Shown piece by piece: positions 4,708-51,848 of a DNA stretch of 60,411 nt; the first letter of the stretch is position 1; each line of letters opens with the position of its first letter. The notes beneath the pieces were generated by a model. That model was not told the DNA's origin, did no database searches, and saw only the letters and a program-made list of their open reading frames with translations. The position numbers and the translations under genes were made by a program. The DNA is from a virus (lineage: Duplodnaviria; Caudoviricetes): the IMG/VR virus record IMGVR_UViG_3300036781_000814, positions 1 to 60,411 of that record; one strand, given 5' to 3'.

Positions 4708-5175
4708 ATGGCAACAATTACCATTGACGACAGTAAGATCAGGCGCCTTTACAAGACCGCCGGCCAGGAATTCAAGGAGCTTCTGGAGGCCGAATTCGGT
4801 CCGAAATTTTTCTCCGGTGACATCACCGGACGCATATTAAGCTTCGAAGACGCCTGCGCTGAGGTTGGCAAGGATCCGCATGACCGCTTCTTTTCGGAAG
4901 CTCGTCCTCACGAAAACGCTATTCGGAAGATAGAGGTATGGGCGCTTGCTCTCAATGAAGGGAACGTGCTAAGCTATACAGATCCTTCCACTGAAAAGTG
5001 GCGCGTATGGGTAGTCTATGACGAGTCTATCTCCGGCTTCCGGTTGTGCGCTGTCGACTACGATGGCACGGGTACGTACTCGGGCCTCGGCTCCCGGACC
5101 GCCTTTGCTTCTGAGAAGCTGGCTCGGCATTTTGCCAAACATGCCATGCCGCTGATAAACGAGTCTTTGGCCTGA
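4708..5175 (+). CDS. DGR target protein 1 (small, contains VR1)
   Basis: Contains a 66-bp VR matching the TR at all non-adenine positions; VR ends in a GLGSR motif; paralogous to target 2 (SFEDAC vs SLEQAC). Confidence 0.9.
   Translation: MATITIDDSKIRRLYKTAGQEFKELLEAEFGPKFFSGDITGRILSFEDACAEVGKDPHDRFFSEARPHENAIRKIEVWALALNEGNVLSYTDPSTEKWRVWVVYDESISGFRLCAVDYDGTGTYSGLGSRTAFASEKLARHFAKHAMPLINESLA
5032..5097 (+). repeat. DGR variable repeat VR1
   Basis: 11 mismatches to TR 5629-5694, all at TR adenines. Confidence 0.95.
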
Positions 5176-5207
5176 TCTCATTTTTTAACCATTTACAACT
5201 CAATAAC

Positions 5208-5588
5208 ATGCAAATCGAAAGTTTAGAGCAGGCCTGCGAAATGCGCGGATGGGACGCTCAAACCGTGATCCCCGATATGTCCTGCTATCCGGAGAAGCAT
5301 CGCGCCGCCCTCATGGCTGTTGCCGAGATGATCCTGATCACGGACGCCGCCAGGGAAAAAGATCCTGATTGGAATAACCGCGACGAAGAGAAGCATACCG
5401 GCTGGATGGATATGGAGGTAGACAGAAACAACCCCACCGGCTTCCGGTTGTTCGCTGTCGTCTACGATTACGCGAGTGCGCACTCGGGCCTCGGCTCCCG
5501 GCTTTGCTTCGAAAGCGAGGGCGATGTGAGATACCATTTCGAGAAACATCTGGATAAGATGCGCGCCATGATGGTCATCGAGAAATAA
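5208..5588 (+). CDS. DGR target protein 2 (small, contains VR2)
   Basis: Contains a 66-bp VR; SGLGSRLCF motif; paralog of target 1. Confidence 0.9.
   Translation: MQIESLEQACEMRGWDAQTVIPDMSCYPEKHRAALMAVAEMILITDAAREKDPDWNNRDEEKHTGWMDMEVDRNNPTGFRLFAVVYDYASAHSGLGSRLCFESEGDVRYHFEKHLDKMRAMMVIEK
5437..5502 (+). repeat. DGR variable repeat VR2
   Basis: 12 mismatches to TR 5630-5695, all at TR adenines. Confidence 0.95.
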
Positions 5589-5594
5589 GATTTT

Positions 5595-5811
5595 GGGTTG
5601 TGCGGCGCCAGAGCGGCGAGGTTTTCGGTCCGGCTTCCAGTTGTACGATGTCAACTACGATAACACGAATACGAACTCGGGCCTCAGCTCCCAGCAATTG
5701 CAATTTAATTTTTCCGCGCAGCAGACCCTGCCAACAGGGCAAAAAAAGACTCATTAATAAGAGGCGTCAGTAGGGTGAATGCCCGGCCGCGACTCTTTGA
5801 AAGCAAAGGGA
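5595..5811 (+). ncRNA. Putative DGR template RNA (TR plus structured flanks/spacer)
   Basis: GTTGTGCGG (5597-5605) can pair with CCGCGCAGC (5714-5722) using two G-U pairs; hairpin CCCTG-CCAA-CAGGG (5726-5739) then A7; boundaries are approximate. Confidence 0.55.
5629..5695 (+). repeat. DGR template repeat (TR)
   Basis: Intergenic, just upstream of the RT; 17 adenines, four AAY codons and no adenine at a third codon position in the VR frame. Confidence 0.95.
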
Positions 5812-6942
5812 ATGAAAAGAATAAATGGACTTTACGATCGGATCATATCGCTGGAGAACCTCCGGGCGGCTGACACTATTGCCCGAAAAGGTAAGCGTCG
5901 GCAGTACGGGATATACAGGCATGATAGGAACCGGGAATCCAATATTCTGGATCTTCACTCTTCCCTGCAGTCCGAAACTTACCGGACATCACAGTATTCC
6001 ACCTTTAAGGTATTCGAGCCAAAGGAGCGGATAGTATTTCGGCTGCCTTACTATCCCGATCGGATCGTCCACCATGCCATAATGAATGTCCTGGAGCCGG
6101 TGTTCGTTGCATCGTTTACGACTGACACCTATTCCTGCATCAAGGGGCGAGGTATCCATGGCTGTCTTAGGGCAGTCAAAAGAGCGCTTCGGGATGCGCC
6201 GGGGACCAGGTACTGCCTCAAGTTGGATATCACCAAATTTTACCCATCCGTCAATCACAGGATACTAAAGAATCTTCTTCGCCGGAAACTCAAAGACGAG
6301 CGGCTCCTGGCGTTGCTGGACGAGATCATCGATAGTGCTGACGGGCTGCCGATCGGAAACTACCTGAGTCAATATTTCGCCAACTTCTACCTGACCGGTT
6401 TTGACCATTGGCTGAAGGAGACAAAGCGCGTTCGCTATTATTTCCGATACGCTGACGACTTGGTCTTCCTGGCGCCTGACAAGGGATCGCTACACCAGCT
6501 GCTGGCGGACATCCGGGAATATCTCTGGCTAACGCTTAAGCTCCAGGTCAAAGGCAATTACCAGGTTTTCCCTATCGGCAAGAAGAGGGGCAGAGGCCTT
6601 GACTTTATTGGCTATGTATTTTACTCACATCTCCATATCCTACTGAGAAAATCCACTAAAAAGAGGTTCGCACGGTTAGTAGCAAAAAGACCCAATCTCG
6701 CATCGATAGCGTCCTACTACGGATGGGCCTGTCACTGCAATTCAAAAAACCTGCTTAAAACCTTATTGGATGAAAAGTTTTTCAGATTTCGGCATCGAAT
6801 CAAGCCAGGAGGCATTCACAGGAGACAAAATAAAGATCGAGCGCCTATTGAATCTGCCTATCCTGGTGCTCAAATACAAAATCGGGCAGTCAAATTTCAA
6901 AGGCAGATTGCTCACGCTGCAGATAAAGAAGGGAGAAAGTGA
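5812..6942 (+). CDS. DGR reverse transcriptase
   Basis: RYADD catalytic motif, DGR-type GLPIGNYLSQ, YCLKLDITKFYPS, DRIVHHA; no maturase/endonuclease extension; likely start ATG 5812. Confidence 0.95.
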   Translation: MKRINGLYDRIISLENLRAADTIARKGKRRQYGIYRHDRNRESNILDLHSSLQSETYRTSQYSTFKVFEPKERIVFRLPYYPDRIVHHAIMNVLEPVFVASFTTDTYSCIKGRGIHGCLRAVKRALRDAPGTRYCLKLDITKFYPSVNHRILKNLLRRKLKDERLLALLDEIIDSADGLPIGNYLSQYFANFYLTGFDHWLKETKRVRYYFRYADDLVFLAPDKGSLHQLLADIREYLWLTLKLQVKGNYQVFPIGKKRGRGLDFIGYVFYSHLHILLRKSTKKRFARLVAKRPNLASIASYYGWACHCNSKNLLKTLLDEKFFRFRHRIKPGGIHRRQNKDRAPIESAYPGAQIQNRAVKFQRQIAHAADKEGRK

Positions 6943-7060
6943 GCATGTGGTCTTTACTGGTTCCGCTACGCTCATAGAAATGATTGAAAAGGTTCCTGCT
7001 GATGGATTCCCATTCCAGGCAACCATTATAAAGAAGGACGAACGATTCATTTTTACTTAG
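6770..7060 (+). CDS. Small beta-rich protein coupled to the RT 3' end (candidate DGR accessory factor)
   Basis: 96 aa, starts where the RT fold appears to end (overlap 173 nt); VVFTGS..LIEMI..FPFQATI. Confidence 0.7.
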   Translation: MKSFSDFGIESSQEAFTGDKIKIERLLNLPILVLKYKIGQSNFKGRLLTLQIKKGESEHVVFTGSATLIEMIEKVPADGFPFQATIIKKDERFIFT

Positions 7061-7084: not shown

Positions 7085-7513
7085 ATGCAAAGAAGGTCAG
7101 ACATAGTGAAAGAGTTACTGGAAGGCGCTTACATAATGTATGCCGGCAGCCGGCCGACCTTATACACCGGCAACCAGCAGCCATCTCTGCGACTGACGAA
7201 TGGCACCTATAAGTACTTGCGGAACGTGCTGAAGACCAGCAAAAAGAACAAACGACAGTATATCAGCATCCGGGCGATCCAGCAGCTACGCCGGCATCAC
7301 GGAATAAAGAAAGCCTATAAAAAGTTTCACAATGAAAAAGTTAATCATCAACTCCAAGGATCTGAAAGCCGCCCTGCAGAAGCTCAGCCAGGTAATCGTC
7401 AAAAAACCTGTCATCCCTGCTCTATCCAATATTTATTTGCGGGTCCGGGGCAACGAAGTGGAGTTGATCACGTCCGATCTGGAACTGACCATCAGTTATG
7501 TCTGCAAATGTGA
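7085..7513 (+). CDS. Hypothetical basic protein
   Basis: K/R-rich ORF; 3' part overlaps dnaN and may be non-functional read-through. Confidence 0.45.
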   Translation: MQRRSDIVKELLEGAYIMYAGSRPTLYTGNQQPSLRLTNGTYKYLRNVLKTSKKNKRQYISIRAIQQLRRHHGIKKAYKKFHNEKVNHQLQGSESRPAEAQPGNRQKTCHPCSIQYLFAGPGQRSGVDHVRSGTDHQLCLQM

Positions 7514-8411
7514 GTGCGTCGAGGAGTTCGAGCTGCTGCTGCCTTTCGAATTCGTTTCGAAGCTGGTTGGCCTTCTTCCCCAGCAGCCAATCACCATCTC
7601 TCTCCTTCCTAAGAATAAGGGAGAGATCATAGGCGAGGGAGACATTCACAAGCTGGGTACACTGGATAAGGTGGAAGACTTTCCGAAGATCCCCAACATC
7701 CCCTCCAGGAAAGCCGTTGACCTGGATGCGAGTTTCATGCGGTGGTTAGAACGGGCGATGGAATCGGTAAGTAAGGATAAGCTGCGTCCGGCAATGACAA
7801 AGGCGCTGCTGGAGATCAGCCCGGATGACATAACGATCGTCAGCACCGACGCCCACAGCCTCTTCCGCCATAAGTTTCCCGTTCAGTCGCTGATGACGGA
7901 GCAGATACTGATCTCTCCTAAGATCGCCCTATCCTTGCAAGGGTTTGAAACCACAAAGCTGTCCTGGAATGCGACACATCTTGCGATGAAAGCGGATAAC
8001 GTGACCATTATCGCCACCCGGCATAATGATAAGTTCCCCGATTACCGCGTAGTGATCCCCAACCAGCCGGCCAACCTCGATATCAGCCGCGCGGAACTGA
8101 TCAGCGGGATAAACCGCGTCAGCCTTGTCAGTTCCCAGCAGATTAAATTCCAATTCACCGGCGACGCCCTGGACAAACTGACCTTATATGCGGAGAATGA
8201 GGAAAGGAATTCGGCGGTAGAGGTATCCGTCAGCTATTCCGGCAATACTCCATCGATCGCATTCGCGCCGGAGCTTTTCAAAACCCTGCTTCATCAGATA
8301 CCTTTTTCGGAAATCCGGCTTCATATCGACTCTGCTGTCCGCGGGGTCCTCATCACAGCAGAAGAGGATCCTGATTATCTGGGAATGATTATGCCACTCT
8401 TACTTAACTAA
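7332..8411 (+). CDS. dnaN: DNA polymerase III beta sliding clamp
   Basis: 359 aa; PVIPALSNI, TSDLELTI, VSTDAHSL, KFPDYRVVIP, C-terminal MIMPL. Confidence 0.93.
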   Translation: MKKLIINSKDLKAALQKLSQVIVKKPVIPALSNIYLRVRGNEVELITSDLELTISYVCKCECVEEFELLLPFEFVSKLVGLLPQQPITISLLPKNKGEIIGEGDIHKLGTLDKVEDFPKIPNIPSRKAVDLDASFMRWLERAMESVSKDKLRPAMTKALLEISPDDITIVSTDAHSLFRHKFPVQSLMTEQILISPKIALSLQGFETTKLSWNATHLAMKADNVTIIATRHNDKFPDYRVVIPNQPANLDISRAELISGINRVSLVSSQQIKFQFTGDALDKLTLYAENEERNSAVEVSVSYSGNTPSIAFAPELFKTLLHQIPFSEIRLHIDSAVRGVLITAEEDPDYLGMIMPLLLN

Positions 8412-8918
8412 ATGAATATGAACTTTTTTACTGACCTGGCTGCCTACGGGCAGGGAATTGACATCAGTCTGCGGATCAAGGGCAAAAATGGGAAGCTGAC
8501 GATCCAGATCGAGCCCCAGCCCGCACATAACTCGACACTTAAGGCCTTGCGTGTTACGGGTAGCCCCGAGGATCTGGACCGGGAGTTTTCCGAAGCGGCC
8601 AAGGCTGCCAGCGTTGTTCCGGAAGGAGTGCAGAATAGCACGGCAGATATGGAAGCTGATGTTGCTTCGGCGGCTCATAAGCCAAAGGAAGAAGGCCGAT
8701 CCTTCCCTACAAAGAAGAATACCGGCAAGAAAAGCAACAAGGCTAAAAAGACGGTGCCGCCAAAGAAGGGAACTCCTCCGGTCTCAAAGACCTCTCCAAC
8801 ACCGGTGGATATGTTCAGTCCTGGCACCCCGGGGGCGGCGGTAGCTGACGAGCCCAACACCGACGACCAGGATGAAGTGGAGGAAGGCGGAGAGACCGAT
8901 GAAACCGAAACCGAATAA
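8412..8918 (+). CDS. PRTRC system protein E
   Basis: N-terminal FF..L, LRVTGSPEDLDREF motif, Lys-rich then acidic low-complexity tail; position before protein C. Confidence 0.8.
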   Translation: MNMNFFTDLAAYGQGIDISLRIKGKNGKLTIQIEPQPAHNSTLKALRVTGSPEDLDREFSEAAKAASVVPEGVQNSTADMEADVASAAHKPKEEGRSFPTKKNTGKKSNKAKKTVPPKKGTPPVSKTSPTPVDMFSPGTPGAAVADEPNTDDQDEVEEGGETDETETE

Positions 8919-8939
8919 TCACTTTAATATTTTCCTTAT

Positions 8940-9161
8940 ATGCCACTCGAAGTAACCAATCTCAAAAGAGCCTTTTCCTTTAAGAAGGACGGCAAACGCA
9001 TCGATCTAAGCGATCCCAACCCTGAGTTCTCTGTCCAGGAGGTGCTTCAGTTCTATTCCGGACAGCACTCCGAACTGACCACCTGTACCATCGATGGTCC
9101 TAAGATCGAAGGAGATAAGGCCATCTACGAATTTAAGACGACAGTAGGGACAAAGGGATAA
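8940..9161 (+). CDS. PRTRC system protein C (prokaryotic ubiquitin-like)
   Basis: 73 aa; LSDPNPEFSVQEVLQFYSGQHSELTT; ends TVGTKG. Confidence 0.9.
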   Translation: MPLEVTNLKRAFSFKKDGKRIDLSDPNPEFSVQEVLQFYSGQHSELTTCTIDGPKIEGDKAIYEFKTTVGTKG

Positions 9162-9189
9162 TCATGAAACTCAAAGATTTCAAAAAGTC

Positions 9190-10329
9190 ATGCCGAAAAA
9201 AGCTACCAGCAAAAGATCTTCACAGCAAGTTGGGCGCCGCGCTAAAAGGCGAGCTGCGGGACCACCATCTTCACGCAAGAGACCAGTACATGCTCCGCAG
9301 ACTGCCAGCATCGTCGGAGATTCCCTGGCTGCCATGAGGTTCAAACCGAAATCCGGAACGGAAGTGTTTTTTGCCGTAGGCGGCTTGGATGGCGATGATG
9401 CAGAGCGGATCTACGGAGATATCTATAAAGGATACACCCGGTTATACGAGCTTCTCAGGAAAGAAAGGATGGCCTTCGATCCGTTGAAAAAAGGCTTGTC
9501 TTACCCGGTGGCGCTCGGCTGGCTTCTTCGGCAGATCAAAACATTAGTGCCGGCTGAGTTTGATTTCAATATTGACTCGGAAGAAAACGGGTCAGGTTGC
9601 CACCTCACCATTTTCAAGGAATGCTATTGGCCCAATCAATTTCTTGCCCTGGAATGCGGACCCGCATTGCTTAAACTTGGCAAAGTAAACCGTCCCCTGC
9701 AAGCTCTCTTTATGAGTTTTATCCGGACTTTCGGCGGCGCGACATCCATTGACATTTGGACAGCAGGTATGATGGGTAACAGCCTGGAGATGCTCGACGA
9801 TAATATGTTGCAAATGGAAGGCGACCGCGATCCGCAAGACCTCGAGGAGATGGGAATCGAAATTAAGGCGCACCGATCGGGAATTCCATACAAACTTTCA
9901 AAGCAGATCAGAAAAGCTCCCTTAATGAGCCCTGATGAGCTGCAGCGCCGGGCTAAGCGGTATAAGGCCGGCAACCCCATTGCGAATCTTATTCACCAAG
10001 GCGCTGAATTACTCAGAGAGGGATGCAGCCTGATGGATTACACGTACTGGTCCAGTCCTGAAGACATGTACCACAATGCCTGCCTCCTCTTACTCGATCA
10101 GGCATCGTTCGTATGGGAATTCAACACCCATCTGATGAATGAGCATGAAGAATACCTCGACTGTCAGGCGCAAGAAGGTGTTCAGCAGCCTATCGTATCT
10201 GCCACAATCGATCGGGCGACGAAAAGCCTTGATATGAAAGCGCTTTCCAAAAAGGCAGACTGGCCGACGCGTTTGGTGGACTTCTTCAGCCGGGCGTATG
10301 AACTAACCGAAAAATTCAAACAGGCATGA
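9190..10329 (+). CDS. PRTRC system protein F-like
   Basis: Size and position between C and B; family motifs only weakly recognisable. Confidence 0.55.
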   Translation: MPKKATSKRSSQQVGRRAKRRAAGPPSSRKRPVHAPQTASIVGDSLAAMRFKPKSGTEVFFAVGGLDGDDAERIYGDIYKGYTRLYELLRKERMAFDPLKKGLSYPVALGWLLRQIKTLVPAEFDFNIDSEENGSGCHLTIFKECYWPNQFLALECGPALLKLGKVNRPLQALFMSFIRTFGGATSIDIWTAGMMGNSLEMLDDNMLQMEGDRDPQDLEEMGIEIKAHRSGIPYKLSKQIRKAPLMSPDELQRRAKRYKAGNPIANLIHQGAELLREGCSLMDYTYWSSPEDMYHNACLLLLDQASFVWEFNTHLMNEHEEYLDCQAQEGVQQPIVSATIDRATKSLDMKALSKKADWPTRLVDFFSRAYELTEKFKQA

Positions 10330-11051
10330 ACGAGCTTACCGACAACCTCATTAAAGAGTATCATCCCAGACTGGCGATCATCGCACACACCTCTGCCCTG
10401 AATGACTGGCGGGATGTATACCTCGAAAGCCACCCTATAAACGAGGCTGGGCAGATACTGGAAGGAAGACCCCTGAAGCAAGAGACAATCCAGGAAATAG
10501 TAGATGTGTTTTTTGATGAACGGCAGAACGCGGTCGCGGTCAGCGGTATGATCCCCGCCAATGTGCTCCAATTCGAGGTTTTACCCGGCGGCAGATACTC
10601 TCTGATGTGGTACCGCCCGGCAGAACGCCGCCGGATCTATTTTTCAGAGTCTCTTAATATTCCATCCGGTGAGGCCTGGATGCCTCCGATGATCTATCAT
10701 ACGAAGGACAGCCGGGGACTGGCGATGTATGCATTGGCAAACGACGACCGCCCTGCCGAATCAACCCGGTTATTTAGAGCGCCATTCCATAACATCTATG
10801 ACGATGGTGACGTCTGCCTGGGAAATGCGCAGGTAAAGAAGCCGTCTCAGAAGACCTACGCATCCCTTATGAAATATTGGGAAGATCTCTTTTGGCTGAG
10901 CGAGTTTACTCACCTCAATGGCACCGCCAATCCTACAAAAAGTAACCTCGCGTTGCTTTGGCCAAAGCTGGTGAAAAATAAGAAGCTGACCTGGTCGCAG
11001 TTGGATGAGCTCAAGCCCTATAAAAAACAAACCGTAAAAGACTTAATATGA
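10326..11051 (+). CDS. PRTRC system protein B (prokaryotic E2-like)
   Basis: WYRPAERRRIYF, LFRAPFHNIYDDGDVCLGN (candidate catalytic Cys), WEDLFWLSEFTH. Confidence 0.88.
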   Translation: MNELTDNLIKEYHPRLAIIAHTSALNDWRDVYLESHPINEAGQILEGRPLKQETIQEIVDVFFDERQNAVAVSGMIPANVLQFEVLPGGRYSLMWYRPAERRRIYFSESLNIPSGEAWMPPMIYHTKDSRGLAMYALANDDRPAESTRLFRAPFHNIYDDGDVCLGNAQVKKPSQKTYASLMKYWEDLFWLSEFTHLNGTANPTKSNLALLWPKLVKNKKLTWSQLDELKPYKKQTVKDLI

Positions 11052-11809
11052 TCGTTCACTATACCGAGAAATATCTGCTGAACCCCGTCCATAGGATCAC
11101 CGTCAACCTGGTGGGCCTCGGCGGCACCGGATCACAGATGCTGACCTGCCTGGCCCGGCTCAACGAAACCCTCAAGGCCTTGGGTCATCCGGGACTTCAC
11201 CTGAAGGCCTGGGATCCGGATACGGTAACCTCCGCGAACCTGGGCCGCCAACTCTTTTCTCCGGCAGATCTTAACCAGTCGAAGGCCATAGTGCTGACTT
11301 CCCGTATAAACAGGTTCATGGGCCTGGATTGGGAGGCTCATCCCCGGGAGTACAACGGAGGCGAACCCGCCAATATCCTGATCACCTGCATCGATACTGC
11401 CGCCGGGCGAGTTGCGCTTTCGGAACATGTCGTTGAACGCAAAACTGTAGAGGTAATAAAAAGACCCTATTACTGGCTGGATCTTGGCAACCTGCAGAAG
11501 ACCGGTCAGGCCATACTCGGAACTGTCAATAACATATCGCAGCCGAAAAGCGATGAACACACCACCCGGGCGACATTGCCCAATGTGGTCAAATTCTTCC
11601 CGCGGCTCAGGAAAATTAAAGAGGAGCAGCAGGGCCCCAGCTGCTCCCTGGCAGAAGCCATCAGAAAGCAGGATCTGTTCATCAATAGTGCGCTGGCGCA
11701 ATTCGGTGCCACTCTTCTTTGGAAGTTGTTCCGGGAGGGAATGATTCGGCACCATGGCTTCTATCTGAACCTTGATACTCTGCAGACCAATCCTATACCT
11801 ATTAAGTAA
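11048..11809 (+). CDS. PRTRC system ThiF-family (E1-like) adenylyltransferase
   Basis: VGLGGTGS, DPDTVTSANLGRQLF, ITCID, YWLDLGN, GPSCSLAEAIRKQDLFIN. Confidence 0.92.
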   Translation: MIVHYTEKYLLNPVHRITVNLVGLGGTGSQMLTCLARLNETLKALGHPGLHLKAWDPDTVTSANLGRQLFSPADLNQSKAIVLTSRINRFMGLDWEAHPREYNGGEPANILITCIDTAAGRVALSEHVVERKTVEVIKRPYYWLDLGNLQKTGQAILGTVNNISQPKSDEHTTRATLPNVVKFFPRLRKIKEEQQGPSCSLAEAIRKQDLFINSALAQFGATLLWKLFREGMIRHHGFYLNLDTLQTNPIPIK

Positions 11810-17259: not shown

Positions 17260-17606
17260 GTGAAATGAAAGTAATCATCGAAGGGGTTTGTATTTCATTG
17301 ACGCCGAGTCAAATAAATGCGATTACCAAAGAGAGGAAACGGCGGGAAAAGTGTCGAAGCTCCTTTGAAAAAATGCTTGTGCATTTTGGGTTCACCGGGG
17401 TGCCGGACCTGCCCAATTCTTTCGAGCATAAGGCCTGCGACTGGTATGCAGAAATAACTGACAGGGGTGGATGGAGTGATGTATGGATGGTGGGTCATGG
17501 CCTTCGACAAGGAAGATTTCCTGGAGGATGGATATATGACGATCCGGAAGAAATTGAAAAGGAAATTATTCGGGCCTTGGAGCAAACAGATTTTACAAAG
17601 CATTAA
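17256..17606 (+). CDS. Hypothetical protein
   Basis: ATGA-coupled 116-aa ORF. Confidence 0.55.
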   Translation: MSEMKVIIEGVCISLTPSQINAITKERKRREKCRSSFEKMLVHFGFTGVPDLPNSFEHKACDWYAEITDRGGWSDVWMVGHGLRQGRFPGGWIYDDPEEIEKEIIRALEQTDFTKH

Positions 17607-17617
17607 ACAAACAAATT

Positions 17618-17770
17618 ATGAACCCAGCCACACCCCGCCGCGCCTTACTGATCATCGGCGCTACTATCGCCGCGATCGTTATCCTGGCCGCCTGCCATCA
17701 CTTCTTTTACGACTGCCCGGCCTTTAACCCTATTATCGAACATTCTGAAATAAAGGAGGATAGCGTATGA
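17618..17770 (+). CDS. Small membrane protein or lipoprotein (50 aa)
   Basis: MNPATPRRALLIIGATIAAIVILAAC lipobox-like; read directly. Confidence 0.5.
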   Translation: MNPATPRRALLIIGATIAAIVILAACHHFFYDCPAFNPIIEHSEIKEDSV

Positions 17771-17774
17771 GGTT

Positions 17775-18035
17775 TCAGTCCATCAATCTCCGGTCAATCA
17801 GGTATTTTGTGAGCGCCCAACCTGTGGCCCGGAGGAAGGAATCCGCCGGCTCGTATGCGCGAGGCTCCCATGTGACACCTGCTCCGGGATAGAACCTCCA
17901 CATTGAGATAGTGCCGACCTGAGCATCGACAGTTTTATCAGATACGCGAATGTTGAAGCGCCCGTTGCCAATGTCCTGGCCGATAGCTTCGAAGGTCTCA
18001 GATTGAAAAGGAACGATAAAAGTAAAGGCGGTCAT
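17775..18035 (-). CDS. Hypothetical protein on the opposite strand (moron-like)
   Basis: 86-aa ORF in a gap with no long + strand ORF. Confidence 0.5.
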   Translation of the reverse strand: MTAFTFIVPFQSETFEAIGQDIGNGRFNIRVSDKTVDAQVGTISMWRFYPGAGVTWEPRAYEPADSFLRATGWALTKYLIDRRLMD

Positions 18036-18083
18036 GATGCATATTTTGCATCCAATGTAAACAATTAAAAATCAAATAGCAAG

Positions 18084-18320
18084 ATGAAAGCCTACATAAG
18101 CAAATACGCCCTGACGGCAGACGTCTATGAGGTGGAGGGCCGCTTGGATGGACTCGTATTTAGATACCAGCGGAAGGGCATCGAAGCGGCGCTGCTCTGG
18201 TGTGTGGAAGTCCATGCCACGAAAGAGCAAGCCGTATCAATGGCAGATCGCCGCCGGGATGACCGAATCAAGTCGTTGGAGAAACAGATTCATAAACTTA
18301 AAATGCTGGAATTCAAATGA
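18084..18320 (+). CDS. Hypothetical phage protein
   Basis: AYISKYALT...HATKEQAV..A..RR...IKSLEKQI.KL. Confidence 0.65.
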   Translation: MKAYISKYALTADVYEVEGRLDGLVFRYQRKGIEAALLWCVEVHATKEQAVSMADRRRDDRIKSLEKQIHKLKMLEFK

Positions 18321-18601
18321 ACAAGTCGAAACTGTTGTGCATCATTGACGGAACATGGGAAGAAGAAATAAGGGTTTTAGGGGGATTTGTCAAGTATTGG
18401 AAGGACTCCACCGGACCAGCCTATGGCGACATTGTAGCGAAAACCGGAAGCTTTCACGAAGGCGGCGACCTATACTACTTTCTTGAGGAATGGCCTCCGA
18501 AAGACGATACTGATGGATATTCGGCCGACTGCTTTATCCCCATCGAAGAAGAGAGTGAAACAGCAGAGTTCGCTATCGAAAGGGAAAATAAGACTATATG
18601 A
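18317..18601 (+). CDS. Hypothetical protein
   Basis: ATGA-coupled ORF. Confidence 0.55.
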   Translation: MNKSKLLCIIDGTWEEEIRVLGGFVKYWKDSTGPAYGDIVAKTGSFHEGGDLYYFLEEWPPKDDTDGYSADCFIPIEEESETAEFAIERENKTI

Positions 18602-23123: not shown

Positions 23124-23227
23124 GTGTGGACGCAGGGTATTTTGTAGTTATTAAAGCATGAACTATCTTGCTATTAATAAAGGTAACACATTGTGTTTTA
23201 CCTGATTTATTAAGGAGACACTTTTCA

Positions 23228-23806
23228 ATGGCCGCCCCTAAAGGCAATCAATTTTGGAAGCTGCGCTCAGAGCATGGGCGTGAAAAGCTTTTTGCAAGCC
23301 CTGATCTTCTCTGGGAGGCTGCTCAGCAATATTTCAACTGGTGTGATGGGCATCCCTGGTATATGGTGGAGGCAGCTCGCCAGGGTGCGCGCCTCACTAA
23401 AACCAAAGACGGGCAATACAAGGAACCGGATAAACTACTGAAAATTCCTACAGTAATTCCTTATACGCTTACAGGCTTCTGTCTGTACATTGACGCCAGT
23501 AAATACTATTGGGGAAATTTCCGCAAGCAATTGCATAAGGCGTTGGATAATAACAAGAACGACAAGTTATCTGAAGATTTTATTGGGATCATAGACCGTA
23601 TTGAGCTCATAATTGAAACGCAAAAGTTCACCGGCGTTGCCGTTGGTGCATTCAAAGGCAATATCATTTCGAGCGAGATGGGCGCTGCTGCTAAAATTGA
23701 GGTGCGCCAGGTGGATAAAGAAGGCAATGATGTCAAGGCGCCGCCGGCTCTGAATATTGTTGTACAAAGGGCCGCTGCGCCGATCGCCGAGTCGGAGGAG
23801 GAATGA
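23228..23806 (+). CDS. terS: Terminase small subunit (P22 gp3-like)
   Basis: MAAPKGNQFWKLRSEHGREKLF..P..LWEAA..YF.W; upstream of TerL. Confidence 0.88.
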   Translation: MAAPKGNQFWKLRSEHGREKLFASPDLLWEAAQQYFNWCDGHPWYMVEAARQGARLTKTKDGQYKEPDKLLKIPTVIPYTLTGFCLYIDASKYYWGNFRKQLHKALDNNKNDKLSEDFIGIIDRIELIIETQKFTGVAVGAFKGNIISSEMGAAAKIEVRQVDKEGNDVKAPPALNIVVQRAAAPIAESEEE

Positions 23807-24972
23807 CGACCGGCCCACTCTTCAAAAAATTAATAGAATGCCTCAGAAGGATTGTTGTATGCCAGGGCGGTGGTGATGCTGGTAAGACGGTTGCTATCCT
23901 GCAACTGTTCGCTACAAAAGCCATCACTGAACCCGGGAGCATATTGACAGTAGACGGCGAGGACATCCCCAATTTGAAAGCCGGAGCCCTGCGGACGTTT
24001 CAACGATATGTAATTCCTGATCCGGAGATAGCCTCTTACCTAGTGAGCTATAATAAGACCGAACGCGTCTATACCTTTAAGGGAGGCAGCATCATTGAGT
24101 TTGTCAGTTTCGAAGATGAGCAGGACGCCCGCGGATCCGAGCGCGACTACCTATATATTAATGAGGCCAACAGCCGGACCTATTCCTATTTCTGGCAATT
24201 GCAGCGTAAGACCCGCAAGCAGGTATTCATTGACTATAATCCGACATCTGCCTTCTGGTGCCACGAAAAGCTGCTGGATAGGGCAACCATCGAAAAGCAG
24301 TTCATTGGCCAGGTCCAGCTATTCATTACCGATCACCGGCACAATCCCTTCCTCAGCCAGGAAGAACACAATAATTACGAGAACATCGGGGATCCGGAGC
24401 TGTTCCAGGTGTATTCCCGCGGCAAGACCGGCAAGGTTAAGGGCCTCATCTTCGCCCACTTCAAGAAAATCGAGGTGTTCCCTATTGATATTGACCGTAT
24501 TATATGGGGGATTGACTACGGGTATACAAACGATCCGACGGCGCTGGTGAAAATCGGCGTGAAGCAGCGGAAGCGGTACCATCATGAATGCTGCTATGAG
24601 CCTGGCATCACCGCTGACCGCCTGCAGGAGATACTCGTTCTTAATGGGTATCAAAGCGACCAGGACATTTACAGCGAAGCCGATCCTAACATGATCAACC
24701 AGCTCCGAGTGCTGGGGCTTTCTGTTTACCCAGCCATCAAAGGTCCTGGCAGCCTGATCGCCAGCATATCCAAGGTTAAGGAGTTTGAATGCTTTTATAC
24801 AGCCACGTCCGTCAACTTCGAAAAAGAGATCAATACCTGGAAGTGGATGATCGCAGAGGACGTGCTCACCGGCAAAAAAGTGATGACCAATGTTCCTATT
24901 GACGGCAACGACCACTGCTGCGCAGCTTCCCGGTATGGTATATATACGGATAGTTTCCGGGGCGCCGCATAG
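23803..24972 (+). CDS. terL: Terminase large subunit (PBSX-like)
   Basis: QGGGDAGKT, YINEAN, DYNPT, GIDYGYTNDPTA, DGNDHCCAASRY. Confidence 0.92.
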   Translation: MTTGPLFKKLIECLRRIVVCQGGGDAGKTVAILQLFATKAITEPGSILTVDGEDIPNLKAGALRTFQRYVIPDPEIASYLVSYNKTERVYTFKGGSIIEFVSFEDEQDARGSERDYLYINEANSRTYSYFWQLQRKTRKQVFIDYNPTSAFWCHEKLLDRATIEKQFIGQVQLFITDHRHNPFLSQEEHNNYENIGDPELFQVYSRGKTGKVKGLIFAHFKKIEVFPIDIDRIIWGIDYGYTNDPTALVKIGVKQRKRYHHECCYEPGITADRLQEILVLNGYQSDQDIYSEADPNMINQLRVLGLSVYPAIKGPGSLIASISKVKEFECFYTATSVNFEKEINTWKWMIAEDVLTGKKVMTNVPIDGNDHCCAASRYGIYTDSFRGAA

Positions 24973-34981: not shown

Positions 34982-37900
34982 TTGCCAGGGCAAAATATTA
35001 TTCAATTAGGATTCGACATTGACACGCTCACCGCTGAAAAAAAGCAGGTGTTGGATATTGTCGCTGATCTTTTCGATAAGCTGGGGAAATACGATGGCGC
35101 TAAGTTTGATCCATTGAAAGGTGGCGGCCTTGGCGATTTCCGAAAGGCCATTCAGGACACCGGCAAGGCAATGGGGGAATATCAACAGACCGCAGAGAAA
35201 TACAACCAGACCATTACCGACCAGGTCACTAAGCATCAGGCCGCAAAGAAGGCAGTTGATGATCTCGGAGCATCTCAAAAAGCAAATGCCGGATCCGCGG
35301 ACTCGTATTCTACATCACAGGATAGGCTCCGGCGTCAAGCAACAGACCTTAAGGTGAGCATGGAAGACGTAGCTGCCTCGATCAGACGGGTAAGAGATGA
35401 ATACAATGAGGGAAAAATATCGATTTCGCAGTATAAAGAAAAGCTCGATCCCCTGCTTGCCCAACAGCTCTCCCTTAAAGTTGCAAACACAGATGTGACC
35501 AAGACTCTCACGGTGTTGGAAAAGCAATTCCAGGCGGTCGGAGGCTCAACAGCCCAACTTGAGGCCAGGCTTAAAGACCTGCAGCATGTTTATGATAATC
35601 TGTCCCCGGAGGGCAGGAATGCCGATGCGGGGAAGACACTTTTGAAAGAGATCCAGGATGTCGACGCTGCCTTTAAGGAACTTAAAGGCGACACCGGCCG
35701 CTTCCAGGACAATGTAGGTAATTATGCCGGAGCACTAGCTCCGGGATTCGCCGCATTAAGGGGGCAGCTTGAGGAAGTCAATAAGCAGATGGCGGAGATA
35801 GAAGCCCGGGGAAAGCCTGGGGTGACCAACCTGAACCCAGTCGGCTTTGATAGGGATCGGCATAAATCAAATACCGGTCCGACGGCCTTTGCCGGGGGGA
35901 GCTCCGAGACTTCCAGCATATTGGAAACAGACTCTGCTGCTTATCAAAAACTGACCCTTCAACAAAAGATACTCGAAGGATCACTGGAGAGACAAAGGAT
36001 CGGATTCGCGAACTCAAATCAGGAGATGAGAAACGCCAAAGCGACATTGGATTCGTTGGCGTTGGCAGGCGCAAACAACACGGAGGGGTTTGAAAAGATG
36101 AATTTGGCGTATACATCTGCTGAGCAGAAAATAAAGGATTTGCACCAGGAGCAAACAATCTTAAGCTCTGACGCTCCGGCTTTGACTGCATTGACCGGAA
36201 TAGCAAAAGGTTTAGGAGGCGCTTATGCACTTGGGGCTGGCGCCGCTGGTCTATTTGCAGATGGAGACGAAAAGCTTGAAAAAGAGCTGAACAAACTTGT
36301 GGCAGTCATGACCTTTTTACAGGGTCTTGAGGAGGCCAGCAAAGCCCTGAAGGACAGAAACGCGCTATCGACTGCCCTGGAAGAATCGGCAACAAAAGCC
36401 CTAAATGTTGTTAAAGAGCTCGAAGTAAAGTGGTTTGGCAAAGAAAAAACTGTTTTGCAGGAAAATATTGCAGCGAAAGCAGCTGATACTGGGGCGACAG
36501 AAGTTAATACAGAGGCAGCAGCGCTTAATACTACAGCTGTGGAAGGTATGACTGTCGCCAATGAAGAAGCGGCTGCCGCCACCCTTGAGCTCAGCACAGC
36601 TCTTTTGGCTACCGGCCTTGGAGCGGCTATCCTGGCAATAGGCGTAGGGGTTGGCTTCCTGGTTGAACATCTAATTGAGCTTTCTGAAGCTGACACGAAG
36701 GCCGCGCAACGATCGGCTGACCTGGCTGAATCCTTGGAAAAAACCAATGAGATCATGTTGGAGCAAATAAAGCTGTCAGACGAATCGGCTGAAAACCAGA
36801 GGAAAAACCTCGAAAACGCGATCACTCTGGCTGAGAAAAATAAACAAAATGAGACCGATCTATTAAAAATAAGGCAGGACCAGTCCGATCTGGATCGGAA
36901 AAAGGCTGAGGATGATCTTAAAAAATTAGCGAAAACCGGTGACTTGGGCGATGCGTATAAGATTGTGCAGGGCAAGGTAGACGCCGCAACAAAATCCGTA
37001 GACTCCCTGGGGAAAAAACAAATCGAACTCAACGGTATTGCCGACATATATAAGAAGGTGAGTGACCCTACGGCCGATTATACTCTTTCGCAAGCTCGCT
37101 TTGACGTTTATGCTAAGTATAAAAAGAACATCACCGAGGAAGATCTGAAGGATCAGCTTGAGGCGGCGGAAAAAGAAAAGACCGCAACAAAAAAGTTTCT
37201 GGAGGATAGCAAGGTGCTCCTCGATGCGTATGACAAATCAAATATCGATGCAACTGGCGTCAGTATTGACGAGAAGCAACATGCAGATGAAGAACTAAGA
37301 AAAATTACCCTTGATACTGCCATCCAGGAGGCCAATGCCACTAAGGCGAAAAACGAGCTGATCCTGAACGATGATCGCAGTACTTTGGCCCAAAGGCTGG
37401 CCGCCATCCGATCCAATGGCGAGGAGGAAATAAAAATTGCCGCCGCCACCAGGAACGACGCCTTAAAACGACCCGGAGCTATAGCTGCCAACGGAGATAA
37501 GTCGGCAGACGCAGTGATAGCGGAAAACGATTACCAGAAAAGGAGGGTAGAAATATCTGATTCAACCGAACAGAAAATGTTCCAGACGACGGTTGAGTAT
37601 AACGATAAGCGACTGTCCTTCCTCAACGATATACTTAAGAATGAGATCGAGACGGACGCTGCGGCTCAAAAAGCCATTACTGATAACGGACAGAAAGAGC
37701 TGGAAGATCGTCTTGGCGCCCTGCAGGCGAATATTGCCGATCGTGCGAAATTGATCGCTGCTGATTACCAGCTACAGATCACCCTGGCCAAAGAACACAA
37801 TAAAACCCAGGAAGAGCTGGATAAGATCGAAAGTAATCGGCAGAAGGCATTGGCGGAACTGGCCCAGACCACACAAAAAGAGATATACGATATCGTTGTC

Positions 37901-39223
37901 AGTTGGGGCGAAAAAAGGGTAAAAGCCATTGAGGAATTAAACAAAACCGGAACCGCCTCTAACACCACTGCTGAGAATTATAACAAGGAGGAAGATGCAC
38001 TAAACCAATCCTTAATCCATAGAGATACCTCATATACGAGGTATCTGACCGAAAAAAAACTGGCCGACCAGCAGTATGCTGTCGATAAAGCCAAGGCAGA
38101 TATTAAAGACGACGAGGACGCGCTGAAGAGGCTAAAAGACTTCCAGGATAGTGAGCTTAAGGTAAAATTGGACGCTGCACAGTTTGCTCTCGACGCTGCC
38201 AAGGGGGAGGGCAATGACGACGAAATAGCAAATGCTCAGGCTAAGGTTGATGCCTTGAAGGCAATAGAAACTAAAGCCAATGCCGATACGGTGGCTGCTA
38301 CAGCGAAATTAGAAAAGGATAAAACTGCCCTTCATCAGGCTCAGGTGAAGCCAATTGAAGAAGCTGATGCACTTCTATATTCTCGCCAGCAGGAGTTACA
38401 AAAAGCAACCTACGATTTCGCGAAAGATCTCGTCGATTCTTCTTATGAGAATGAGATCAATAAAATCCAGGCGAAGATGGATCTGCAGGACCAGGCCTCC
38501 GCAGAACAGATTGCAGCCATTCAGCGTTCCTCGCTGAGTCAGCAGAACCAGGCGGCCGAAGTGACCATCCTCAGCGCTCAGCAGCGGGCTCGCGACACTC
38601 AGTATAAGCTCGAGCAAAAGAAAGATAAGATCGCCGAGGCTAAGTTCGACCGGGACGTTGCTGTTGCCCAGGTTGTATGGAACACCGCGAAGGCCATTAT
38701 GAAGGATACAGCAGGTATTCCTTTTCCCCTATCACTGGCGATCGCCGCTACCGATGCAGCCCTCGGCGCCGTCCAGGTTGCCACCATCCTGGCAAAGCCC
38801 ATCCCAGCATACGCCGAGGGTGTCGGTATACCTGGTAGAGGTCGCCACCCGGGCGGAGAAGCATTAGTGGGTGAGGAATACAGACCGGAACTGGTCACGC
38901 CACGTGGCGGCCGGCCTTTCATCGTGGACCAACCGACGTTACTGAACCTGCCGGCTGACTCCATGGTCCAGCCATTGGACATCTCCAACATGGTCTTCGA
39001 GCTGGCGGGTATCGGTATGATGCGGGGCGCGATGATGATCAATTCTCACGGCGAGCTGCAGGATAACCGGGTAGAGGCAGCCATTCAGGCCCAAACAGCG
39101 CAGCTTTCCCGGGTATTCCGCAAGAACCAGCGGAAAATCCTAAATGTCGTCCACATCCACAATGAAATGAATGGCCTCTCGGTCGATTACATCAACACTA
39201 AAATACTGGGTAAGAAAAGATAA
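34982..39223 (+). CDS. Tape measure protein
   Basis: 1413 aa, coiled-coil/Ala-rich, FQDNVGNYA, hydrophobic segments, C-terminal AYAEG..HPGG.ALVGE..PELV; TTG start. Confidence 0.9.
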   Translation: MPGQNIIQLGFDIDTLTAEKKQVLDIVADLFDKLGKYDGAKFDPLKGGGLGDFRKAIQDTGKAMGEYQQTAEKYNQTITDQVTKHQAAKKAVDDLGASQKANAGSADSYSTSQDRLRRQATDLKVSMEDVAASIRRVRDEYNEGKISISQYKEKLDPLLAQQLSLKVANTDVTKTLTVLEKQFQAVGGSTAQLEARLKDLQHVYDNLSPEGRNADAGKTLLKEIQDVDAAFKELKGDTGRFQDNVGNYAGALAPGFAALRGQLEEVNKQMAEIEARGKPGVTNLNPVGFDRDRHKSNTGPTAFAGGSSETSSILETDSAAYQKLTLQQKILEGSLERQRIGFANSNQEMRNAKATLDSLALAGANNTEGFEKMNLAYTSAEQKIKDLHQEQTILSSDAPALTALTGIAKGLGGAYALGAGAAGLFADGDEKLEKELNKLVAVMTFLQGLEEASKALKDRNALSTALEESATKALNVVKELEVKWFGKEKTVLQENIAAKAADTGATEVNTEAAALNTTAVEGMTVANEEAAAATLELSTALLATGLGAAILAIGVGVGFLVEHLIELSEADTKAAQRSADLAESLEKTNEIMLEQIKLSDESAENQRKNLENAITLAEKNKQNETDLLKIRQDQSDLDRKKAEDDLKKLAKTGDLGDAYKIVQGKVDAATKSVDSLGKKQIELNGIADIYKKVSDPTADYTLSQARFDVYAKYKKNITEEDLKDQLEAAEKEKTATKKFLEDSKVLLDAYDKSNIDATGVSIDEKQHADEELRKITLDTAIQEANATKAKNELILNDDRSTLAQRLAAIRSNGEEEIKIAAATRNDALKRPGAIAANGDKSADAVIAENDYQKRRVEISDSTEQKMFQTTVEYNDKRLSFLNDILKNEIETDAAAQKAITDNGQKELEDRLGALQANIADRAKLIAADYQLQITLAKEHNKTQEELDKIESNRQKALAELAQTTQKEIYDIVVSWGEKRVKAIEELNKTGTASNTTAENYNKEEDALNQSLIHRDTSYTRYLTEKKLADQQYAVDKAKADIKDDEDALKRLKDFQDSELKVKLDAAQFALDAAKGEGNDDEIANAQAKVDALKAIETKANADTVAATAKLEKDKTALHQAQVKPIEEADALLYSRQQELQKATYDFAKDLVDSSYENEINKIQAKMDLQDQASAEQIAAIQRSSLSQQNQAAEVTILSAQQRARDTQYKLEQKKDKIAEAKFDRDVAVAQVVWNTAKAIMKDTAGIPFPLSLAIAATDAALGAVQVATILAKPIPAYAEGVGIPGRGRHPGGEALVGEEYRPELVTPRGGRPFIVDQPTLLNLPADSMVQPLDISNMVFELAGIGMMRGAMMINSHGELQDNRVEAAIQAQTAQLSRVFRKNQRKILNVVHIHNEMNGLSVDYINTKILGKKR

Positions 39224-43296: not shown

Positions 43297-43301
43297 AATA
43301 A

Positions 43302-44753: not shown

Positions 44754-44843
44754 AACGTCTTATTTTTATAGATAAAAGATTGCTGCTAAACAAATTAGTA
44801 AAAAGATAATTTGAATAAATAGCAATCTCAAATAACCAACAGC

Positions 44844-51600: not shown

Positions 51601-51848
51601 GTAATATGGAGTTCCATGTGGTCTTTGGTTCGGGTAGTGACAACCATGCGTACGTTGATCCCAACGGGAAACCAGCATCCACCGGCAATATTACCACTTC
51701 TGGACCAGGTACGGTAACGAGCGGATCATTCACGGGGACGATTACAGCAGGGCAGACTATCAAGATCTGGGTGACGAAAGGAACCGCCGGCGGAAATCTG
51801 GGCGCGCTGGGATACATAAACGCGCTCAAAATTGTAAAAACGAATTAA
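48663..51848 (+). CDS. Signal-peptide-bearing right-handed beta-helix protein (depolymerase/adhesin-like)
   Basis: MKKFLTILLFIPCLLRG|Q; YYV.ASGSDGNAGTS..AWATL.KA; DDGAGIY, GIYADNN, Asn ladders. Confidence 0.8.
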   Translation: MKKFLTILLFIPCLLRGQAKYYVKASGSDGNAGTSSTLAWATLAKACTTPVAGDSVFVNGGDVFNETFRPKTGVVYTSYGTGKFVVGGFVTLTGWTSVGGGVYQSTCSGCTPSTSMLLMNGSQQPFARYPNTGYLTYQSFSGTTSITSSSLTGTPNWTNGYVAIRAFNAGLGVHKITAQSGGTITYTNATGWTPAANFGFFILNDSLALDTLGEYIPGPGYIKMFFGGASPASYLVQVPNRDTLVSFPNGSKNITIINMDAEGANVIGLYGDNDTSIVINNSVVAFSGGTGQQLNRCVNCRITNTTVRRCNENGIMIGDSSKNAYVGMNDVRHIGVIPGQGTYRQGDSYKGINTRGVKTITELNRVHAIGYDGILGYNDSSISYNVIDSTNFVTDDGAGIYHLGYDADTTRVHLIRGNVIWNAVGAAAGTNNLSFAPAYGIYADNNNTGCNVDSNTIYSCAQAGIFFHNTRRSNITNNNVYACKYQLDFQGDDATKPIRANTIKHNVLGLANSSQSLWNIASFNNIYFTKTIGAIDSNAYGYTNLSSTPFQYYPPLSQTYKQWGDSITETNTTILNAPDAFAVNTGSSAMALRSNPCYGDAAGTNYVGNSSIPRYSSKLLFLKSPCTLPSPDVSIWDLSRIAVDIQPSVALTPHSFVFANTAGSASTSRSLSYTFYSTPVSADTITTPSGFEASIDNGSNWATTFNGIASGTGSALIRVAASTAAGTYAGNVVLKSKTTKAVYVSAVVSSGGSLSASPSSITGLNGTAGSAGTAQTVMVTFAGTMVTATPPSSTEISQDGGGTYNAVSQVFSTGSPLSLKIRTTAAASAGSVSGNLHLSGTGGATAVDVPVTGTISAVSSALFNFSASASTVSGATNAFGDPTASPTFTDGTTGWQVKMQGANWVKFGGSNYGGVANGATAASGDGIFTMAQINSNLYNINSYSSPAPQIIIDKSGGLAAGTYAIYLLGSIPTSVFDNSGNMEFHVVFGSGSDNHAYVDPNGKPASTGNITTSGPGTVTSGSFTGTITAGQTIKIWVTKGTAGGNLGALGYINALKIVKTN

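Follow-up and report, generated by a model that had tools for sequence, protein, structure and literature searches.

Organization of the Retroelement

The stretch of DNA described here, referred to below as the window, is the 60,411-nucleotide IMG/VR virus record IMGVR_UViG_3300036781_000814 (Duplodnaviria; Caudoviricetes), which is a prophage lying inside a 484-kb contig. Between positions 4708 and 7060 it carries a genuine, intact diversity-generating retroelement (DGR), in which one template repeat (TR) serves two adjacent small target genes. To our knowledge, among prokaryotes and their viruses no natural system other than DGRs carries out targeted hypermutation of proteins, and what we know of them in phages concerns almost entirely the receptor-binding tail proteins. 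The parts of the cassette, all on the + strand, are in order: a long target gene (target gene 1, 4708-5175) containing the first variable repeat (VR1, 5032-5097), a short paralogous target gene (target gene 2, 5208-5588) containing VR2 (5437-5501), the non-coding TR (5629-5694), a structured spacer RNA (5695-5811), a reverse transcriptase (RT, 5812-6942), and an open reading frame (ORF) for a 96-aa protein (6770-7060), which we refer to as X96.

The Template and Variable Repeats

The TR, which was located by a repeat scan and alignment, contains 17 adenines in its 66 bases. Comparison of the TR, without gaps, with both strands of the whole window gave only two partners, at 5032-5097 (55/66 identical) and 5436-5501 (53/66), with no further site matching at 40 or more of the 66 positions. 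A BLAST search with the TR for additional VRs, as had been suggested in a preliminary description of this DNA made from its letters alone, likewise returned only VR1 and VR2 from the whole 7.49-Mb, 51-contig assembly. Relative to the TR, there are 11 mismatches in VR1 and, over TR 5630-5694, 12 in VR2, and every one of them is at a TR adenine; the same counts had been given before. The accompanying statement that all non-adenine positions are identical holds from 5630 onward but not at 5629, where the TR has T and the sequence aligned to it upstream of VR2 has A (5436), and this single non-adenine mismatch places the beginning of the repeat at 5630. With adenine making up 17/66 of the TR bases, the probability that 23 of 23 mismatches would fall on adenines by chance is about 3e-14. 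Seven of the TR adenines are at the first codon position, ten are at the second and none is at the third, in agreement with the preliminary description. In the frame of the VRs, the TR translates as SGFQLYDVNYDNTNTNSGLSSQ, VR1 as SGFRLCAVDYDGTGTYSGLGSR and VR2 as TGFRLFAVVYDYASAHSGLGSR.

Three of the TR adenines (5657, 5660, and 5675) are unaltered in VR1 and VR2 alike, and five others (5639, 5648, 5653, 5686, and 5693) are altered identically in both of them, that at 5639 to G. The changes at 5686 and 5693 are from A to G in both VRs and they are found within the adenine-poor, GC-rich 3' end encoding G-S-R, where the TR reads AGCTCCCAG and the VRs read GGCTCCCGG. A TR-A/VR-G difference of the same kind is present in 47 of 49 TR/VR pairs from related cassettes, in which the TR has AGN..CAN where the VR has GGN..CGN. 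Because the two differences are the same in both VRs and recur in these related pairs, they look like a fixed anchor difference, of the type known between the initiation of mutagenic homing (IMH) sequence of a VR and the non-identical IMH* of its TR, and not like products of mutagenesis. The GC-rich IMH/IMH* pattern is directly visible at this 3' end, and its function as a homing anchor is predicted. The diversified space of 15^4 x 4^9 = 1.3e10 proteins per target that was calculated earlier is arithmetically correct (1.33e10) but too high, as two of the codons look fixed; leaving out the codons of 5686 and 5693 gives 15^4 x 4^7 = 8.3e8, and leaving out that of 5639 as well gives 2.1e8.

The spacer between the TR and the RT is 95–117 nt long and could be aligned over 21 non-identical cassettes, in all of which an internal run of adenines is invariant. 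Analysis of these cassettes by RNAalifold predicted a hairpin, the A-run and a three-part hairpin, with 12 base pairs, nine of which show compensatory changes on both sides, and the conserved pairs are retained in the window copy (5695-5811). The spacer presumably belongs to the DGR RNA, and it is not covered by any family in Rfam. When the 45 nt following each of 48 VRs were folded, no structure was consistently obtained that resembled the hairpin after the VR in BPP-1.

The Reverse Transcriptase and the Conserved ORF that Follows it

The ORF of the RT opens at 5779, and its homologs align from the methionine at 5812. The protein matches RVT_1 in Pfam (8.8e-15) and phrog_1423 in PHROGs (4e-120), and it contains the motifs IGNYLSQ and YADD that had been read as DGR-type from the sequence alone; motifs of the IGxxxSQ and YADD type are taken as diagnostic of DGR RTs. 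It shows 58–68% identity to the RTs of related cassettes, 34% (E 2e-48) to the DGR RT of Hankyphage (Bacteroides phage p00, BK010646.1) and 36% to the pieces of the RT of Bacteroides phage BI-TP1. The conserved core of the RT ends near 6775, where the frame has no stop; it continues for 55 further codons (6775-6942) across the start of X96, which is in another frame. The resulting overlap is 172 nt in the window, and overlaps are also found in several relatives (e.g. L001, L009, L013, and L015). The Hankyphage RT carries the equivalent domain as an in-frame fusion, and the RT of BI-TP1 is distributed over three frames. Judging from these sequences, frameshifting or fusion at the RT/X96 junction may be a trait of this lineage.

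X96 (6770-7060) was recognized from its conservation, model and charge as a basic protein with a predicted OB fold and a candidate accessory factor. Its mean column identity is 53% over 19 sequences, its mean pI is 8.55, and its predicted structure is a beta-barrel with OB-fold matches; no match was found for it in Pfam. In tblastn searches a homolog of X96 was present right after the RT, or overlapping it, in 22 of the 25 RT-bearing viral loci described below. Among the deposited phages, tblastn also detected a homolog in a Methanosarcinales virus and another in the archaeal virus ANMV-1, at 36127-36399 (40% identity, E 7e-10), which is 24 nt past the RT when the coordinates of the latter (35045-36103) are taken from row 107 of Table S1 of Wu et al. 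(2018; PMC5758913). An X96-like segment forms the last ~108 residues of the Hankyphage RT, at the 3' end of its coding sequence (31% identity, E 3e-3), and the BI-TP1 protein gp9, which holds the last piece of the RT, aligns to X96 over residues 81–180 (hhalign 66%, E 5.6e-5).

The accessory protein Avd (PF05635), which is present in 74% of DGRs (Wu et al., 2018), had no match among the 69 window ORFs that were scanned (9 + 60); as Avd is not universal, this does not exclude the element from the DGRs. X96 itself was considered as an Avd, a helical-bundle basic protein of ~128 aa that is found beside the TR and RT. Although basic and adjacent to the RT, X96 is modelled as a beta-barrel of the OB type and has no Pfam match, and is thus not an Avd; nor does it agree with the descriptions by Wu et al. 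(2018) of HRDC, MSL (112–283 aa, neutral) and CH1 (160–169 aa, acidic). Its position, charge and predicted fold suggest instead that Avd-less RTs may have X96, encoded separately or fused to them, as a nucleic-acid-binding partner that stands in for Avd. A literature search pairing diversity-generating retroelements with the OB fold listed no paper on an OB-fold accessory of DGRs. Benler et al. (2018; PMC6199706) mention a small ORF of Avd-like size and charge near the Hankyphage RT, and a figure legend of Paul et al. (2015; PMC4372165) refers to an ORF of ANMV-1 labelled as Avd by size and charge; either of these ORFs may be X96 or a different protein. An OB-fold partner common to Hankyphage and ANMV-1 may be a new observation, and such a partner would bear on the priming of cDNA and on homing in a large Avd-less branch of DGRs that includes the widespread Hankyphage.

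Based upon these parts, the following mode of action is proposed. The TR would be transcribed together with the structured spacer, and the RT would copy this RNA into cDNA, misincorporating opposite template adenines. The cDNA would then replace VR1 and VR2, with homing anchored at the adenine-free, GC-rich 3' end encoding G-S-R, and in this manner about 9–11 codons would be randomized in each of the two paralogous proteins. By analogy with Avd in BPP-1, the basic OB-fold protein after the RT is probably a nucleic-acid-binding helper.

The Target Proteins and their Family

Target 1 is a soluble, acidic protein of 155 aa whose N-terminal part matches phrog_11581, for which no function is annotated, and target 2 is a protein of 126 aa that clusters with targets from the second position in related cassettes. 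The two are 29% identical to each other. The sizes, the paralogy and the lack of a signal peptide given in the preliminary description agree with these results: a hydrophobic N-terminus was seen in none of 50 family targets, and no membrane-like segment was found in the two targets of the window. The VRs are followed by 25 codons in target 1 and by 27 in target 2, within the range reported earlier (25–28), and by 22–33 codons in all 50 of the family targets. An internal VR with 22–33 trailing codons is thus a hallmark of the whole family.

No Pfam domain was detected in target 1 or in any of its 31 close homologs, which are ~150–160 aa long. Their alignment shows a helical part at the N-terminus that is conserved, followed by S-G-F-R, a hypervariable block, G-L-G-S-R, which is again conserved, and a conserved C-terminal helix. 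Searching 1.84 billion cluster representatives with a profile yielded 4797 matches with E<=1e-3, of which 3278 had E<=1e-10; most of them are ~155 aa in length and some are tandem fusions of ~300 aa. The targets are members of a very large family that is borne by phages and has no name, and its VR is probably of class CLec3. Lectin families were not found by Pfam in any of 32 family members, and a match to XPB_DRD in five of these (best E 7e-4) was weak and was treated as noise. The preliminary description had proposed structure prediction as a means of detecting a CLec-like fold. The AF2 model that was made for target 1 has a pLDDT of 83 overall and of ~52 over the VR, with helical ends and an irregular middle; it matched no solved structure, and searches of BFVD and the ESM Atlas gave only uncharacterized phage proteins.

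In most cassette loci a target of ~155 aa is paired with one of ~128 aa. In a maximum-likelihood (ML) tree of 45 distinct targets, 20 of the 23 first-position targets are on one side and 20 of the 21 second-position targets are on the other side of a branch with support of 93/88 (not starred), and the two targets of the window cluster with their own positional classes. Because the positional classes separate in this tree, the long/short pair looks like the result of one old duplication that has been co-inherited since, which is possibly a new point. A complex prediction for the long and short targets had a score of 0.29 against a mark of 0.32; it gave no answer and provides no evidence either way.

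Some further members of this family have features of their own. P0180 (399 aa, from a cluster of 22) contains an Lcl_C/DUF1566 lectin-type domain at residues 87–181, just under the Pfam cut-off, followed by the full family domain at 205–394. P0178 (377 aa) is represented by one partial sequence of a KSB1 bacterium; its residues 2–253 hold a response-regulator receiver and a PAS domain, and its match to the target family covers 75% of the query. P0007, P0018, and P0020 have an identical N-terminal part of ~100 residues, differ through the VR, and from there on lose their register, which would be expected of assemblies that break or shift within the hypervariable block. Lastly, among the viral loci that lack a nearby RT there is a subfamily of ~190 aa, whose near-identical members vary only within a stretch before G-S-R-L in which N, S, Y, A, and D are abundant, and from this pattern they look like remote DGR targets.

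Recurrence and Activity of the Cassette

A scan of IMG/VR identified 168 relatives, of which 80 loci were kept. An RT 58–68% identical to that of the window was detected by tblastn just downstream in 25 of these 80 loci. TR/VR pairs, which were sought by self-BLAST with the condition that at least 80% of the mismatches be at the A of one strand, were found in 26 loci, viz. 24 of the 25 loci with an RT, a locus whose RT lies beyond the locus end (L007), and a locus with a different arrangement and a 32%-identical RT (L073). In the 25 TR/VR-positive loci of the cassette type, the number of VRs is two in 21, one in three, and three in one (L071). An earlier scan of genomes that used only close homologs had found no relative. 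However, a scan covering one genome per species gave 48 loci, almost all from Bacteroidota (Chitinophagaceae, Flavobacteriales, and Bacteroidales), with an adjacent RT in 24, a TR/VR pair in 25 and the 96-aa ORF in 18 of them. The cassette is present in cultured, non-gut Bacteroidota, and its carriers include Niastella caeni HX-16-21 (L094), Epilithonimonas sp. UC225_85 (L115), and Soonwooa buanensis DSM 22323 (L125). Searches of the deposited phage genomes gave no match for target 1 by tblastn, and blastn of an 8-kb segment gave only one irrelevant match of 151 nt.

The loci L029 and L043, which are from different samples, are 99.68% identical over 6898 bp, with 22 differences. Of these, 17 are in the two VRs (9 + 8), and all 17 are at positions of TR adenines. 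Because of this restriction to TR-adenine positions, the comparison indicates that the cassette type is active and rewrites both of its targets in nature. A lack of VR variation in related genomes had been named in the preliminary description as a sign of an inactive element; adenine-specific variation of the VRs is what these two loci display. The copy in the window would by extension be active as well. In three other loci (L052, L053, and L055) the VRs are identical to one another.

Relationship to Known DGRs

The prototype DGR is that of Bordetella phage BPP-1 (mtd-avd-TR-brt), which is characterized by adenine-specific mutagenic retrohoming, a GC-rich 3' anchor that differs between TR and VR, and an RNA spacer between the TR and the RT. 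The window element resembles it in the adenine signature from TR to VR, in the 3' anchor difference and in the TR-RT spacer. However, in BPP-1 the target is a tail fiber with a C-terminal VR and Avd is required, whereas the window has no Avd and its two small, non-fiber targets have internal VRs.

A much closer likeness is to DGRs catalogued by Wu et al. (2018). Row 120 of their Table S1, from Galbibacter sp. ck-I2-15, is assigned to Lineage 3 with the order TG-TG-TR-RT, Architecture A1, and CLec3 targets of type f4; the two targets measure 157 and 124 aa, the TR is 69 nt, the RT is ~326 aa and ~25 codons follow each VR. The window element has the same gene order, no avd, small targets consisting only of the VR domain, and a nearly identical geometry (155 and 126 aa, 66-nt TR), a likeness judged from the coordinates of the table, in which the 96-aa ORF is absent. 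Row 121 (Pedobacter arcticus A12) is a version with one target, and rows 117, 119, 122, and 123 list elements of Lineage 3 whose small target is not adjacent but lies 36–40 kb away. The host phylum of the relatives found here is Bacteroidota. In the same work, Lineage 3 is described as being without avd, no accessory gene or function is listed, CLec2 and CLec3 are assigned to the lectin fold through Phyre2 only, and the f4 targets align poorly to other CLec3 targets. Two lines of evidence bear on the assignment of the window element, viz. the pairwise identities of its RT to those of Hankyphage and BI-TP1 given above, and an alignment of its VR and G-S-R-L/T-A-F end to the VR of the Hankyphage target over 28 columns (hhalign 78%, E 1.8e-5). 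Taken together with the role proposed below, we regard it as fairly probable that the element is a member of this Avd-less lineage, found mostly in phages of Bacteroidota, that corresponds to Lineage 3 of Wu et al. (2018).

Hankyphage shares with the window a related RT, an X96-like part, which is C-terminal in its RT, and a VR whose IGSRLAF end aligns. It differs in having a single target of >2000 aa, with the VR near its C-terminus and beside structural genes, and in the fusion of the X96-like part to the RT. The ANMV-1 DGR also has an X96 homolog after its RT, but its single Mtd-like target is beside tail-fiber genes.

The subfamily of ~190 aa provides a link to a further group, as one of its members matches proteins of the Bacteroides phages LoVEphage, BI-TP1, and PV4-TP1. 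The BI-TP1 protein gp84 aligns over its full length to the profile of the target family (hhalign 99.6%, E 1e-23, 156 columns), all 14 of the mismatches between its VR and the TR of that phage are at TR adenines, and its neighbors are methyltransferases and a tRNA ligase. The target family thus shows full-length homology to a DGR-written protein that is encoded in an island of DNA-modification and early genes. The same TR also serves a BI-TP1 tail-module protein with an Mtd_N-like annotation (gp12), with which the target family shares only the VR by hhalign (probability 5.6%). The matching neighborhood and split RT suggest that gp84 corresponds to the "ORF 84" of Quimbyvirus. The BI-TP1 arrangement agrees with that given for Quimbyvirus by Benler et al. 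(2021; PMC8008677), in which the second DGR target is described as probably non-structural, with a role in phage-host conflict. BI-TP1, and probably also Quimbyvirus and LoVEphage, thus has the same protein family as the window, as a small adenine-written target beside DNA-modification genes. The BI-TP1 target, however, is ~194 aa long with an insertion, is far from the split RT and shares its TR with the tail-module protein, whereas the window cassette is compact and has only two small targets. A family member was also observed in Phocaeicola coprocola DSM 17136 (L135; NZ_DS981430.1, 51315-59842), ~37 kb from a Lineage 3 RT on the same contig. This DGR is row 118 of Wu et al. (2018), with the RT at 17491-18515 and no non-adjacent target recorded, and the protein may be its unrecorded remote target.

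The cassette type and the idea of a non-structural target are therefore already in the literature. The preliminary description, in which targets other than tail fibers were called unusual, was fair in comparison with the textbook case; however, the architecture was catalogued in 2018 and a conflict role for remote members of the family was put forward in 2021. On its own, the window is a further member of a catalogued DGR type.

Genomic Context and Possible Role of the Targets

In the window, the DGR sits between a gene for an ArsR-type regulator and that for a sliding clamp, among early/replication genes, and its targets are ~39 kb from the tail-spike and fiber-like genes at 44844-53794, in line with the ~38 kb of the preliminary description. 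The neighborhood was surveyed in 10 of the 25 cassette loci, picked for full flanks, by scanning their flanking ORFs against PHROGs. The neighbors include Mu-type transposase A/B in five of these loci (with Gam in one), a primase or primase-helicase in four, and an exonuclease, a Gp2.5-like single-stranded DNA-binding protein and a DNA polymerase in one. DNA methyltransferases are nearby in several of them. Replication, transposition or methylase neighbors were seen in 10/10 loci, and an adjacent tail or fiber gene in 0/10. The module thus keeps its place in the early region in phages whose backbones are unrelated (Mu-like, primase-type, and polymerase-type), and this is possibly a new observation.

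The best explanation of all these results, which we consider fairly probable as a whole, is that an intact Lineage 3 DGR in the early region of a prophage diversifies intracellular binding proteins that take part in phage-host or phage-phage conflict. The context somewhat favors an intracellular role for the targets; they would act, with their ligand, in the cytoplasm, and the OB-fold protein would serve as a helper. The binding of host defence or regulatory proteins, which was put forward in the preliminary description, would be compatible with this context. Several observations weigh against this explanation. The target VR resembles that of the Hankyphage target, as seen in the alignment described above, and both Wu et al. 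and Benler et al. regard the latter as virion-associated. A tail-module protein is written from the same TR as the small target in Quimby-like phages, so that a surface ligand is possible. Head/neck genes start 1.5–3 kb downstream of the cassette in three of the 10 surveyed loci, in two of the three on the other strand. The AF2 model matched no solved structure and has low pLDDT over the VR. The RT ORF without a stop at its conserved end, running 55 codons into X96, may be either harmless or a defect. Lastly, for the window copy, one soil-metagenome contig spans the stretch without differences; assembled contigs drop minor variants, and the run is possibly the source of the window.

The first two of these observations, together with the nearby head/neck genes, are also what can be said for the view that the targets are virion-associated, as adaptor or tip proteins docking on tail fibers or the baseplate, which would be encoded away from the structural module and would switch tropism as in BPP-1. 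This view receives further support from Roux et al. (2021), in which viral DGR targets are mostly predicted tail proteins. It has to contend with the survey, in which no locus had an adjacent tail or fiber gene and all had replication, transposition or methylase neighbors, with the ~39 kb that separate the window targets from the tail-spike genes, and with the nature of the proteins, which are of 120–160 aa and have no known fiber-attachment domain (no Pfam hit was accepted in 32 members). In P0178, moreover, the domain is joined to a receiver and a PAS domain, which is a cytoplasmic context, in a single partial sequence. A virion location is unlikely, but it is the most probable of the alternatives considered.

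A more specific form of the intracellular explanation is that the long and short targets would be the two chains of one cytoplasmic antibody-like binder, to which each would supply one DGR-written loop, acting early in infection against host defence or a rival phage, with the OB-fold protein forming a fifth class of DGR accessory that replaces Avd; in this full form we find it doubtful. Somewhat less probable still is that the cassette benefits the lysogen, with the prophage expressing sensors or decoys that recognize proteins of superinfecting phages and thus bring about superinfection exclusion. In its favor, the prophage that holds the element is integrated and encodes an integrase (59095-60411), the cassette is modular and present in unrelated backbones, and cellular DGRs reportedly diversify putative antigen sensors in a published study (PMC10907252); against this, no effector domain is fused to the targets or consistently adjacent to them, and the cassette is on the same strand as, and in line with, early lytic genes. 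It is very unlikely that the window copy is a relic whose VR/TR differences record past activity and whose homing has been lost, since against the absence of variants in the assembled contigs of the single available run, the lost RT stop with its 172-nt overlap with X96, and the mutually identical VRs of L052, L053, and L055, it may be set that all parts are intact and in frame, that the RT motifs are present and the spacer RNA keeps its conserved pairs, that the RT/X96 overlap also occurs in relatives, and that contigs cannot show minor variants.

With an intracellular binder as the preferred explanation, the significance of this work lies in the cassette type, all of whose targets are small soluble proteins from among the early genes; the type is common (4797 cluster representatives of the target family) and moves between unrelated backbones. 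Because it is present in cultured, non-gut Bacteroidota, it is open to study at the bench, and from the identity of the ligand it would become clear whether programmed hypermutation is put to use by phages within the cell, e.g. against defence systems.

Other Genes of the Prophage

The ArsR-type regulator is encoded at 2791, and a tRNA-Met gene (CAT; 2669-2741, + strand) is located between the leftward and rightward early genes. A search for an attachment site here found no repeat of the 3' part of this tRNA of at least 16 nt elsewhere in the window. The sliding clamp gene (7332-8411) is directly followed by a PRTRC-like ubiquitin/E2/E1 set (8412-11809), and the replication initiator is found at 12509. 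The structural genes begin with the terminase (23168-24972), followed by the portal (26517), the major head protein (28659), the tape measure (34982) and the tail-spike and fiber-like genes, which in all extend over 39223-53794. A lysozyme is encoded at 55999, and the integrase (59095-60411) is on the - strand at the end of the window. Two additional observations were made on these genes. The PRTRC-like set consists of a weak match to PRTRC_E (below the cut-off), Prok_Ub (9.6e-24), an unassigned 379-aa ORF, Prok-E2_D (3.5e-34), and an E1-like protein of the ThiF family. Between the tail and lysis genes, at 54314-54757, the prophage also encodes a stand-alone response-regulator receiver protein (1.1e-11).

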